From Acidobacteriota bacterium (GTDB lineage Bacteria; Acidobacteriota; Vicinamibacteria; Vicinamibacterales; JAKQTR01), in contig JBAXOX010000009.1 of the NCBI GenBank assembly GCA_037133015.1, positions 17,809 through 81,808 on the forward strand: a DNA stretch of 64,000 nucleotides, read 5' to 3'. Made by a program: the position numbers. Position 1 is the stretch's first letter; each line of letters starts with the position of its first letter. Positions 54,001 through 57,000 of this stretch are shown in pieces.

Positions 54001-57000
54001 GAGGCAAAGCAGCGCGAGTAGTACTGCAGCCAGATGGGCAGAAATACCGTCTCGTCCCGGACCATCGTCAAGATGGCCCGCCGTCGTTTCTGGGTTCGCC
54101 GTCGCAGGCTCGCCACCTAGAACAATCTCCGCCAGGCCCGCAACGCGGCGGCCTCGCGTGCGGCCCACGGGTTCCCCATCGTGTCGAGCGCCGCCGTCAC
54201 CTCGGTGCACGCCTGGTCGAGCGACCGCGGGCCGTCCCGGCGCCCGGTGTTGACCGCACGGTCGAGCACCTCCCAGAACGTCTCGTTCCACGCCTTGCCG
54301 TTCTGCTCGAACACGGCGTTGCGTGCCGCGTCCGACGCCCGAACATGCAACGCCCCGGGCGGACCGTAGCTCATGCGCATCCCCGCCAGGTCGAGAATCT
54401 GCTTGAGGATGATCCCCATCCAGATGTCGTCGAATCGACGGTAGCCGAGTTCCGCGTCCCACAGCGTGTAGTGGACGTAGGGGGTCAGCGCCCGCTGCCA
54501 GCCGCAGATGCCCCCGTTGACGGGGATCACCTGCCCGGGTGCGACGACGGTGGGACGCCGCACGTACTCGGGCGGCCTGGTGGCAAACTCGGCCTGATGT
54601 GTGATCTGCGTCTCCCCGTCGACATCGGGAATGCCGAAAAACGATCCGACGTGGAACGCCACGGAAACCCTGCCCGTGTTGCGCACCGGATATCCACGCG
54701 ACCGGTAGTTGTGCAGCGGGTCGATCCAGACGGCGACGCCCCCGTCCAACACGTCGGCGAACCCGTCGAACAGCGACGTCCCGGCCATCGGCCGCACGTC
54801 GTCGTCGAGCGTGACGATGACGTCGCAGCCGTCCTGATACGCCTTCCAGCATCCGATCTGCCGACAGCCCGGTGATCGAATCGTGATGCAGTCCAGCATC
54901 CCTGGCGGGGCGTCGTCCCAGCACAGGTGCTGCATCCCGGCATCCGTATCGCGCGGCAGGTCGAAGCTTCGCGTCGGGCCGTCCTCGACCAGATACATTC
55001 GGACGCCGCGGTCGCGGCATTCCGGCGTCCAGGCCTTCAGCCACGCCACGGCCTGCTCGGGACGGCAGGACGGAACAACGCAACCGATGGCCATGCGTTA
55101 GTATAGCGACGTTCCACCGCACAGGTCCCCGGAGGCCACACCTGTCACCCTCGGTTATCGCGACGACATTCGGCGGACGACGGGATCGGATGGCGATTCT
55201 GCTCGACTACGTGCTTCGTGCGCTCCAGACCGGGGTCGTCTCCGAGTACCACGTCTGGGATTACGCGCGCACGCCGCGGGATCGGATCTGGCTGCAGACT
55301 TTGCCAGAGCGGCATCACGCGATTCGAGTGTTGACCCCGCCGTCATCCGACCGACACTATCGCGCCTACTACCGGCACTACCGGAGAGACACCTATCGCG
55401 ACACGGTCTTCGTCAAAATCGACGACGACATCGTCTACGCGAACCTCGAACAACTCCCGGCCTTTCTGGCGTTCCGCATCGCCCATCCCGGATACTTCCT
55501 GGTCTCGGCAAACGTCGTCAACAACGGCGTGTGCGCGTACTTTCAGCAGCAACAGGGCGTGGTGCCCGCCTCGCTGATGGACCTGCCGTATCCGGAGCGG
55601 GGGTTCTGTGGCACGTTGTGGGAGCGGCCCGATCTGGCCGAGCGGCTCCACGGGTATTTTCTCGACGCGCCAGACCGGTTCAGCACGACGGGGATCGATA
55701 AAGCCCCGGACCGGCTGAGCATCAATTTCGTCAGCTACCTCGGATCCGATCTCGACCAGATCGCCAACGTTGGCGACGACGACGAAGAAGAGATGAGCGT
55801 GACCATTCCCCGGCGGCTTGGCAGGACCAACGTCATCTTTCGGCCGATGGTGGTCTCCCATCTCTCGTTTGTCGCCCAGGACCGCGGGATGCGCGTCGCA
55901 CGGCTGCTGCGGCGCTATCGCGAGCTGGCCGAAACCGGGTCGTCGCCCTCGCGGCCGCGCCTCTGGGACTGGGTCGACGCCGGCCTTTGCGGTCGAACTG
56001 TCGATCGGATGCGCCGCCGTATCCGCGGCTGGCGTCAATGAACATGAGCACGATCGGCGGCGATATCGGATCGTCGCCGAGGCGCCTGCTGGACAGGGCG
56101 AGACTGACCGCCGAAGGCGCGACTCGTCGCATCGGCGCGGAAGGCCCCGTCAGTCCGCCCAGAGCGAGCTGAGGTCCAGTTCGATTGCGGTGAACGGTTC
56201 GGCGCGCACCACCTGGTCGCCGCCGGAGGTGGCGAGCACGGTCCAGCCGCCCCCGTCGAGCTGCAGCACCTCGAGGGTCCGGGCGATCGGATCGACCAGC
56301 CAGGCATGGCGCACGGCCTCGCGGGCGTAGATGGAGAGCTTGAGGGTCCGGTCGAGCGTGGCGGTTGAGGAAGACAGGATCTCGCAGATCCAGTCGGGCC
56401 GGAGGCTGAAGTGAGCAGCGCCGGGCAGCTGGGGCATCCGCGCCCGCCGCCAGCCGGCCAAATCCGGCACCAGCACGTCGCGCCCCAAGTGGAGCTCGGG
56501 CTCGTCGAGTATCCACCACCCGCCGGGGCCGCCGATGCCGTGGTCGAATGGTCCGCCGATCCGAACACCGAGCGACGAGTACGCTCGCGTGTGTTTGGCA
56601 GCCGGCCTGGGCGTGGCATGCAATTCCCCGTTGACGATCTCGGTCACCATGATGTCGGGGACCTTCATCAGGTCTTCGTAGGTGGCGGGACGATCGAGGG
56701 GAGGCACGCGCGGCATCGGCTGCATCATACATCGTCCTGTTGCAGGACTGATGCCGCCGAAGATTGTCCGGAAATCGCCCGCGTGGGGACGATCCGGCCG
56801 CTCAGGTGTTGCAGAAACTGCCAGATCGGACGACCGCGATCGTGGCAGTTTCTGCGAGGTCTGGCGCGGCGACTGTCTCTCTCTAGCGCGAAGGCGTGTC
56901 GATCCGCGCGAGCTTGCCCGCCACCAACCTGGCGTTGATCGGCGCGAGGTTCTTCGAGAGCCACTCGTCGAACGCCTTGGAGACGTCCGTCATCTCTCGG

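Follow-up and report, generated by a model that had tools for sequence, protein, structure and literature searches.

A divergent bacterial GT75 protein, predicted to be a flavin-free nucleotide-sugar mutase, in a glycosyltransferase cluster of an Acidobacteriota genome

We analyzed a stretch of 64,000 nucleotides (nt), here called the window, from a bacterium of the Acidobacteriota, order Vicinamibacterales (GenBank assembly GCA_037133015.1, contig JBAXOX010000009.1, positions 17,809 to 81,808 of the forward strand). Among sequencing runs, one DNA data set matched, a metagenome from lake water that may have yielded this DNA, and no RNA data set did. An open reading frame (ORF) on its minus strand, 54117..55094, begins with ATG and encodes 325 amino acids (aa); it is confirmed as a real gene and a member of glycosyltransferase family 75 (GT75), the RGP or nucleoside diphosphate (NDP)-pyranose mutase family. 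Judging from its sequence, we predict that the protein is a Mn2+-dependent, flavin-free NDP-pyranose/furanose mutase. Since this is a bacterial GT75/RGP protein with its catalytic motifs intact, a flavin-free route to a furanose nucleotide sugar is its most likely function. The explanation we favor, with somewhat better than even confidence, is that the gene encodes an active, cytoplasmic mutase of this kind, whose product feeds an adjacent glycosyltransferase of the GT2_4 family and a surface glycoconjugate cluster. The data establish the family, the fold, which residues are conserved, and how the gene is linked and distributed; the activity, mechanism, substrate, and fate of the product are inferred.

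Family membership, fold, and catalytic residues

The guanine-plus-cytosine (GC) content of the ORF by codon position, 0.65/0.51/0.87, is the coding signature of the source genome (DNA 66% GC). The gene is single-copy in this genome, which is 99.3% complete. Compared with four members of its clade, it gives a ratio of nonsynonymous to synonymous substitution rates (dN/dS) of 0.23 to 0.38, with dS near saturation, and on these values it appears to be under purifying selection. All the motifs that had been quoted in an earlier note on this DNA are present in the translation: CITIRSPGCRQIG at residues 69-81, TLDDD at 95-99, RGYP at 133-136, IPDVDGETQ at 155-163, RFDDIWMG at 220-227, and HVRASD at 250-255. 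In the public annotation, the protein (P0001) has 310 aa, with a start 15 codons downstream of the ATG (window 55049-55094). We prefer the 325-aa start because residues 1-15 align with the homologs, including Pro8 and Arg11, which are invariant in the clade. There is no obvious Shine-Dalgarno sequence upstream of the ATG at 55094, and a TATACT lies 8-13 nt before it, so the transcript might be leaderless or have a short leader. A scan of 46500-57000 for promoters and terminators was uninformative: no promoter-like site came up, and 6 sites resembled terminators where 3.9 would be expected.

The earlier note had taken the ORF for a bacterial RGP/GT75 homolog, and this is borne out by Pfam, by profile matches to the Protein Data Bank (PDB), and by the fold of a structural model. 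With the Pfam RGP hidden Markov model, PF03214, the protein scored 38.7 bits, above the cut-off of 23.8 (expect value [E] 8.9e-10), and the same domain is carried by 69 of 70 homologs from a word-indexed database search. Two bacterial mutases of the family have been characterized, MtdL from Marinactinospora thermotolerans (A201A pathway) and Hyg20 (hygromycin A pathway); according to the MtdL paper (PMC9937993), their substrates are GDP-L-galactose and GDP-L-fucose, and they depend on a divalent cation but not on flavin. The premise of the earlier note, that characterized bacterial furanose routes use only flavin mutases or DprE1/E2, does not hold, since both are bacterial GT75 enzymes. When the protein sequence alone was searched against the PDB, it found MtdL chains at E 4e-5 (the crystal structures are 7XPR-7XPV, 7YUA, and 8HL8; PMC9937993). 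A profile of 44 homologs searched against all PDB sequences matched MtdL at E 4.4e-41 (144 bits) and 8CID, "UDP-arabinopyranose mutase," at E 7.2e-36 (127 bits); Foldseek labels 8CID as Oryza sativa UAM2 (OsUAM2).

An AlphaFold2 model built from the alignment of the 44 homologs had a mean predicted local distance difference test score (pLDDT) of 95.9 and a predicted template modeling score (pTM) of 0.94. With this model, Foldseek returned OsUAM2 (E 8.3e-18, template modeling score [TM] 0.74) and MtdL (E 1.6e-17, TM 0.75), and other enzymes of the GT-A fold followed at E 4e-6 or weaker and TM of at most 0.48. Similarly, VIA-align gave a Z of 32.3 against MtdL (root mean square deviation [rmsd] 2.7 Å over 299 residues) and 31.0 against OsUAM2 (3.1 Å over 306 residues), and the best chain outside GT75 reached 16.0. 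The structural match covers model residues 1-325, including the family-specific core and the C-terminal helices, which the MtdL paper describes as unique to GT75 (PMC9937993).

We then mapped the residues of the window protein to MtdL by sequence and profile alignments with MtdL and rice UAM2. According to the MtdL paper (PMC9937993), Asp111 and His287 of MtdL bind Mn2+, Arg159 is the probable nucleophile, equivalent to the self-glycosylated Arg of plant RGPs, and Asp260 is the probable general base; Asp195, Arg257, Arg289, Asp87, Ser228, and Gln229 bind the substrate, with Arg257 in contact with the beta-phosphate. The window protein has D97-D99 at the DXD motif (MtdL Asp109-Asp111), R133 at Arg159 (also aligned with the Arg of RGYP in rice UAM2), D157 at Asp195, R220 at Arg257, D223 at Asp260, H250 at His287, and R252 at Arg289, and all of these, each implicated in MtdL by structure or mutagenesis (PMC9937993), are kept, as the earlier note had claimed for the catalytic motifs. 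In addition, D38 corresponds to MtdL Asp40 and R78 to Arg90. The inactive plant protein AtRGP5 lacks the conserved equivalents of His287 and Arg257 (PMC9937993); H250 and R220 of the window protein retain both. Conservation was followed in a residue table with one row each for the window, L090, and 79 loci of reference genomes, 81 in all: D97-D99 and R133 are conserved in 80 of the 80 rows covering those positions, and D157, D159, R220, D223, and H250 in 81 of 81. R133 also does not vary in the alignment of the 44 homologs or in that of the clade. Of the plant motifs listed in the earlier note, RGYP and DYD were seen in the rice UAM2 alignment, together with CRYFG and DDN; DDD/DDN and DYD are given as plant GT75 motifs in PMC6861824.

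By analogy with MtdL, Mn2+ bound to Asp99 and His250 would hold the diphosphate together with Arg220 and Arg252. Asp223 would deprotonate Arg133, which would attack C1 and form a covalent arginine-sugar adduct; the ring would open and reclose through O4, and the nucleotide would return.

The clade and its sugar pocket

Signature residues were also tabulated over 210 sequences. The signature of the window clade, [S/T]P at 74-75, DVD at 157-159, and NGG at 193-195, occurs in 32 of them; in all the remaining 178, residue 195 is Met and residue 193 is Cys or Ser, and many of these carry a plant-like Asp-Ser at 74-75. Among 24 clade members, 72 alignment columns do not vary, and these include Pro75, Asn193, Gly194, and Gly195. 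In a maximum-likelihood tree of 119 of the 210 rows (all clade rows plus at most 6 per other signature group), the clade forms a monophyletic group (SH-aLRT 100) whose stem measures 2.33 substitutions per site; the tree was midpoint-rooted for drawing only, and the tool warned of long branches meeting. No plant protein or MtdL was named among the best 120 of 352 alignment-search matches, hence the tree is without such anchors, and the position of the clade relative to plant enzymes and to MtdL/Hyg20 rests on profile scores, fold scores, and signature residues. A clade-only profile matched OsUAM2 at 48 bits (over residues 5-325) and MtdL at 43 bits. The window clade thus lies at roughly the same distance from the plant as from the actinomycete GT75 structure. 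We assign the window protein to a small, separate GT75 clade with a remodeled sugar pocket.

The "plant-type" label of the earlier note has to be dropped. The fold and profile scores lie close together for the plant and bacterial structures (Z 31.0 versus 32.3, 48 versus 43 bits), and the protein is without the plant-like pocket, Asp-Ser plus Cys-Gly-Met, that other bacterial homologs have kept. Cys-Gly-Met, which we take to be the plant motif, was observed here only in plant-like bacterial clades.

Changes in the pocket concern residues of known function. In MtdL, Asp87, Ser228, and Gln229 bind the fucose hydroxyls, and Thr13, Asn42, and Ser86 select guanine; D87N, D87S, and Q229A abolish activity, S228A cuts it by about 79%, and S86D abolishes GDP binding (PMC9937993). 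The window protein has P75 at the position of Asp87, G194-G195 at Ser228-Gln229, and Pro8 at Thr13, with no aligned counterpart of Asn42, so only S74 (Ser86) is kept of an MtdL/Hyg20-type pocket. Active plant RGPs have Pro, Asp, Asp, and Ser at MtdL positions 13, 42, 86, and 87 (PMC9937993). Ser74-Pro75 and DVD of the window protein stand in place of the Asp-Ser and DYD of plant class-1 UDP-arabinopyranose mutases (UAMs), and only Pro8 agrees; this comparison is with published residues (PMC9937993, PMC6861824) and rice UAM2, with no class-1 sequence in the alignment. Given an MtdL signature of SD, DVD, and NSQ, the clade has Ser, DVD, and Asn in common with MtdL, and its Pro8 is the residue found in plants. 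By analogy with the sugar bound in MtdL, the Pro and Gly-Gly replacements would remove hydrogen-bonding side chains near O2 and O4/O6 and would enlarge the pocket, which is compatible with a bulkier or differently substituted sugar. To judge from these residues, the substrate is probably neither the UDP-L-arabinose of plants nor exactly the GDP-L-fucose/galactose of MtdL.

The family is spread widely and thinly. An exhaustive search covering 1.84 billion cluster representatives gave 598 matches at E of at most 1e-3, 333 at 1e-10, and only 12 at 1e-30, and the sole full-length representative from the window's own group was P0022, at 51% identity. Scanning one genome per species for a sequence pattern, we obtained 128 matches; 123 of these encode relatives, and the 79 loci that were kept come from Patescibacteria, Actinomycetota, Pseudomonadota, Planctomycetota, Chloroflexota, and others. 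The closest homolog in a reference genome, L010 (74% identity), is labeled Vicinamibacterales, and other clade members are labeled Rokubacteria, Planctomycetota, and Saganbacteria. Only 2 of 201 genomes of the window's order carry a GT75 gene, the second copy being only 31% identical, and with the 44-homolog profile it was found in 14 of 401 genomes of the phylum. Searches of the 2 other genomes from its genus and of 17 from its family did not turn up the gene. This patchy distribution suggests horizontal spread of the clade. The GC content of the cluster, 0.66-0.70, is no different from the rest of the window, and no mobility gene lies at its edges. A further, large group of GT75 proteins (P0218-P0284, about 370 aa, some labeled as Nitrososphaeria or Baldrarchaeia archaea) sits on its own long branch. 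It has Cys-His at 74-75, and the Arg78 or Lys present in all the bacterial proteins is replaced by Thr.

The GT2_4 partner and the gene cluster

The TAG stop of the GT75 gene directly abuts the GTG start of the GT2_4 gene (53316..54116, minus strand), with no spacer. This gene encodes a soluble GT-A glycosyltransferase of 266 aa (Pfam PF13704, 40.9 bits) in which no hydrophobic segment was found; a search of the PDB by sequence returned nothing meaningful. Its invariant residues include Asp103-Glu104 in an ExDE motif, His182, His198, and Asp203. Homologs of this GT2_4 protein adjoin GT75 in 21 of 80 loci. In the 3 loci of the window clade, the partner lies downstream; in the 18 distant ones, 17 of them of the Asp-Ser type, it lies upstream and ends about 8 nt before the GT75 match (partner at about 9190-9992 in L041-L085). 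The two GT75 clades that have this partner share only about 30% identity, and their gene order is swapped. Among 201 genomes of the window's order, a profile of the partner matched in the source genome only; among 401 genomes of the phylum, in which related genomes are not independent, it matched in 3, namely the source genome (350 bits), G317 (290 bits, 18 nt from its GT75 gene), and G479, which gave a weak partial match of 27.8 bits and has no GT75. Both strong matches in the phylum sample thus adjoin a GT75 gene, and GT75 often occurs without the partner. Such a pattern, the partner family seen only beside GT75 and GT75 often alone, is expected of a transferase that needs the mutase product. 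The partner is a candidate furanosyltransferase, and its family may represent an undescribed furanosyltransferase family.

Further predicted glycosyltransferase genes surround this pair. On the minus strand, 51115..53223 encodes a GT4 enzyme fused to a class I S-adenosylmethionine-dependent methyltransferase (702 aa; Pfam Glycos_transf_1, Glyco_trans_4_4, and Methyltransf_11), 49386..51167 encodes a membrane glycosyltransferase of the GT-C fold and PMT_2 family, ArnT/PMT-like (593 aa; PF13231, 54 bits; at least 8 hydrophobic segments), and 48346..49215 encodes a GT34-like (GMA12/MNN10) GT-A enzyme that matches PF05637 at 34.6 bits over a short stretch and has an uncertain start codon (49215, 49116, or 49113). 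The GT4-methyltransferase gene is syntenic in L010, L100, and L101, and the PMT_2 gene in these three and L014; a 76% identical GT34-like homolog occupies the same position in L100 and L101. NCBIfam gave no match for the GT2_4, PMT_2, or GT34-like protein. Converging on the cluster, the plus-strand gene 47030..48154 encodes a membrane-anchored GT2 (Pfam Glycos_transf_2) with four C-terminal hydrophobic segments, which resembles synthases of polyprenyl- or dolichyl-phosphate sugars and whose best NCBIfam matches, AglJ, Dol-P hexose transferase, PpgS, and ArnC, are all below cut-off. Divergently transcribed upstream of GT75, 55190..56041 on the plus strand encodes a 283-aa protein with no Pfam, NCBIfam, or PDB sequence match. 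Its neighbors in a structure atlas (TM 0.74-0.81) are auto-named GT2 or unnamed, many of them from phage, and a homolog stands in the same divergent position in L011, L100, and L101; as a lead only, it is probably another GT-A-fold glycosyltransferase.

The furanose donor would most likely be consumed by the abutting GT2_4. The remaining enzymes of the cluster (GT4-methyltransferase, GT-C, GT34-like, and the further GT-A) would build the furanose into a surface glycoconjugate, to which it may travel via a polyprenyl-phosphate carrier made by the nearby membrane GT2.

At its two ends, the cluster is bordered by a hemD/cobA gene and by a Uma2 gene. The former, 45492-47033 on the plus strand, is a fused uroporphyrinogen-III methyltransferase/synthase (TP_methylase plus HEM4) whose stop overlaps the likely GTG start (47030) of the membrane GT2 as GTGA. 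Just beyond the cluster, 56883-60806 on the minus strand encodes a secreted 1307-aa protein with Sortilin/Vps10 and BNR/Asp-box repeats. A complex I (nuo) run lies at 33612-43404, also on the minus strand, without recognizable nuoE/F/G in the stretch scanned; a second nuoC/nuoD pair is found on another contig, C31, near Gmd (L096 at 11952-14441), so the source genome seems to have two complex I-type operons.

We next looked at the neighborhoods of related GT75 loci, within 6 kb of the gene and with ORF calls for 69 of 80 sources. The commonest neighbors were GT2 (21 loci), epimerases/dehydratases of the short-chain dehydrogenase/reductase (SDR) type (18), GT2_4 (12, or 21 by tblastn), DUF4330 (12), GT4 (10), ABC transporter ATPases (10), methyltransferases (8), and Wzy_C (8); the GT75 family therefore usually resides in surface-glycan loci. 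L010, L100, and L101 (71-74% identity) reproduce the window cluster gene by gene. L014 has the order GT75, GT2_4, then PMT_2, and L011 has the 283-aa homolog, GT75, and GT2_4. ArnC/AglJ-like GT2s surround GT75 in L013 (Saganbacteria) and L106, and L013 also has three PMT_2 enzymes. At L013 (13300-17651), the block of GT75, GT2, and GT-C is followed at once by a gene of pilin type (with an N_methyl motif) and one for a PilM/PilN fusion, which raises pilin glycosylation as a possibility at that locus. A phage tail-sheath-like protein is encoded about 4 kb from the clade GT75 gene in L102 (1895-3241).

The Asp-Ser GT75 clade (mostly Solirubrobacterales and other Actinomycetota) has an arrangement of its own that does not occur in the window clade. 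An Epimerase-family SDR adjoins GT75 in 10 of 17 loci, downstream in L049, L052, L053, L064, L066, L073, L076, L084, and L086 (at about 10920-11950) and upstream in L060 (142-1128); a GT2_4-GT75-SDR operon is present in L049, L052, L053, L064, L066, and L076. The SDR had no NCBIfam match at E of at most 1e-20 in 5 of the 5 proteins tried and fell in the Pfam Epimerase family in 3 of 3.

Candidate substrates, alternative readings, and known systems

The gene content of the source genome and of others carrying the clade bears on the substrate. For the flavin-dependent UDP-galactopyranose mutase (UGM; TIGR00031), the source genome gave hits of 24 bits or less, and none of five other clade-carrying genomes had a match over cut-off, with one near-miss at 286.7 bits. 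Gmd is present in the source genome at cut-off (415 bits) and is over cut-off in 4 of these 5 other genomes, the fifth having it split over two contig ends; among control genomes, it was over cut-off in 5 of 14. A linkage of Gmd to GT75 in the Saganbacteria genome was rejected, as each of the two genes has a contig of its own. All 5 of the other clade genomes have UGDH over cut-off. The source genome also has RmlB and RmlD, two NDP-sugar dehydrogenases over cut-off, one of them TuaD-like and beside GalE (409.7 bits, over cut-off), and, on contig C28, a UXS/ArnA-like SDR that scored 144.5 bits for NF008872 against a cut-off of 294. The UGDH, GalE, and UXS-like SDR genes are unlinked to GT75. 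Because Gmd, UGDH, and GalE-type genes are all present, genome content leaves every candidate substrate in play. A GDP-6-deoxyhexose or GDP-hexose of the MtdL kind is possible, if doubtful; UDP-galactopyranose, in the absence of the flavin UGM (Glf), is a rather doubtful candidate; and UDP-L-Arap, the pyranose form of UDP-L-arabinose, is improbable. The rest of the probability goes to some other sugar.

These data also bear on what else the gene might be. It could encode an equivalent of MtdL/Hyg20, a GDP-L-fucose or GDP-L-galactose mutase that serves a surface glycan rather than an antibiotic, and we give this reading a minor but real share of our belief. Ser74 (Ser86), DVD, and Asn193 (Asn227) are common to the clade and MtdL in a combination seen in no other sampled group, and Gmd occurs in 6 of 6 clade genomes (at or over cut-off in 5, split over contig ends in 1). 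However, a sample of six genomes is small and not free of effects of genome size or habitat, Gmd is unlinked to GT75 in every genome checked, and no GDP-fucose synthase was identified; the exchange of Asp87, Ser228, and Gln229 for Pro, Gly, and Gly, with that of Thr13 for Pro and the missing counterpart of Asn42, argues in the same direction. We consider it unlikely that the protein is a UDP-L-Arap mutase as in plants, converting UDP-L-Arap to UDP-L-arabinofuranose with a supply through UDP-glucuronic acid, UDP-xylose, and a 4-epimerase. Pro8, which active plant RGPs also have at this position (Thr13 in MtdL), fits such an enzyme, and so do the two NDP-sugar dehydrogenases, the GalE beside one of them, and the UXS/ArnA-like SDR. 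Yet the last is below its cut-off and no SDR is linked to the window gene, unlike in the Asp-Ser clade, and the clade, with Ser74-Pro75 for the plant Asp-Ser and Asn-Gly-Gly for the Cys-Gly-Met of plant-like bacterial clades, stands on its long stem apart from these.

Equally improbable in our estimate is that the protein is no mutase at all, being either a self- or arginine-glycosylating GT75 (RGP activity, as primer or transferase) or a silent scaffold like the class-2 RGPs of plants. GT75 proteins also autoglycosylate and class-2 plant members are without mutase activity, according to PMC9937993 and PMC6861824, and the changed pocket could mean that ring contraction was lost. Against this, the protein retains every residue lost in inactive plant proteins (the third Asp of DXD and the equivalents of His287 and Arg257), the altered pocket is invariant in 24 clade members, which fits a specific substrate better than decay, and the gene appears to be under purifying selection. 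A more specific idea, which we advance tentatively, is that the [S/T]P-DVD-NGG clade is a new specificity class acting on a sugar that characterized GT75 enzymes do not use, forming an obligate pair with GT2_4 and, in the window cluster, passing a furanose on a polyprenyl-phosphate carrier to the GT-C enzyme, which would transfer it outside the membrane. Candidate substrates would be UDP-galactose in bacteria lacking Glf, or a 2-substituted or bulkier sugar that fits the opened pocket.

Several observations weigh against our preferred reading of an active mutase that feeds GT2_4 and a surface-glycan cluster. The PF03214 match is confined to residues 133-278, and no NCBIfam model matches the GT75 protein. 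No nucleotide-sugar synthesis gene is linked to GT75 in the window. Two positions essential in MtdL, Asp87 and Gln229, are Pro75 and Gly195, and because of this an MtdL-like reaction on an MtdL-like substrate is not to be assumed. L012, L102/L103, L104/L105, L108, and L110 have unrelated neighbors and no transferase beside GT75; since this is about half of the distinct clade contexts, the GT2_4 link is not universal. The genome scans scored 5-13 first-look candidates per genome, so weak GT2_4 homologs could be missed. Finally, a model of GT2_4 (pLDDT 90.5) has a generic GT-A fold, with GalS1 from poplar as the best match (TM 0.49), followed by SunS, AvpGT, and WrtF, and because it matches only such generic enzymes, nothing marks GT2_4 as a furanosyltransferase.

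Furanose sugars are rare and often surface-exposed or immunogenic, and their nucleotide donors are hard to synthesize chemically. A lipid-linked furanose logic is known from mycobacterial arabinan synthesis, and if the lipid-carrier reading is true, the window cluster would be its non-flavin counterpart. If the substrate is new, the enzyme would widen the range of enzymatically accessible NDP-furanoses and point toward an envelope glycan with furanose residues, not yet described, among uncultured bacteria of soil and water. GT75 occurs sparsely across many bacterial phyla, chiefly in loci for surface glycans, and the partner family, seen only by GT75, offers a candidate for a new furanosyltransferase family that can be put to the test. 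Neither the chemistry nor the family is new, and the finding overturns nothing. In 2019, CAZy held 9 bacterial and 43 archaeal GT75 entries (PMC6861824). PMC9937993 gives only two bacterial GT75 mutases as characterized, both from antibiotic pathways and both acting on GDP-sugars. Our literature search, which left subscription journals largely uncovered, found neither a paper on a bacterial GT75 enzyme outside antibiotic pathways nor one citing 8CID.

Among known systems, the polyprenyl-phosphate synthase and GT-C pairs (ArnC/ArnT, PpgS, AglJ) resemble the window, and also L013, in combining a membrane GT2 with a PMT_2 enzyme. They differ in that the GT2 matches in the window are below cut-off and no flippase was identified; that the carrier-linked sugar would be a furanose is our own proposal. 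The usual bacterial mutase, flavin UGM, would perform the same kind of ring contraction but has an unrelated fold and cofactor. Rice UAM2, a class-2 protein, shares the full-length fold and is the best match of the clade profile, but it has DDN and lacks the equivalents of Arg257 and His287, whereas the window protein keeps all three. The plant class-1 enzymes (OsUAM1, AtRGP1-3) share RGYP, DDD, the Pro at the Thr13 position, and the Mn2+-dependent chemistry without flavin that we predict here, whereas the window protein has Ser-Pro, DVD, and Asn-Gly-Gly instead of Asp-Ser, DYD, and Cys-Gly-Met. With MtdL and Hyg20, the window protein has in common the whole-chain fold, the catalytic residues, the equivalents of Arg257 and Arg289, Ser at 86, DVD, and Asn227. 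Compared with MtdL, however, the window protein is only about 20% identical and about 50 residues shorter (325 versus 376 aa), carries Pro at the positions of Asp87 and Thr13 and Gly-Gly at that of Ser228-Gln229, and is encoded in a surface-glycan cluster with a GT-C, a GT4, and a dedicated GT2_4 rather than in an antibiotic cluster. The family is thus known in bacteria; what is new is a divergent clade with a conserved remodeled pocket, a GT75-dependent GT2_4 family, and the surface-glycan/GT-C context.

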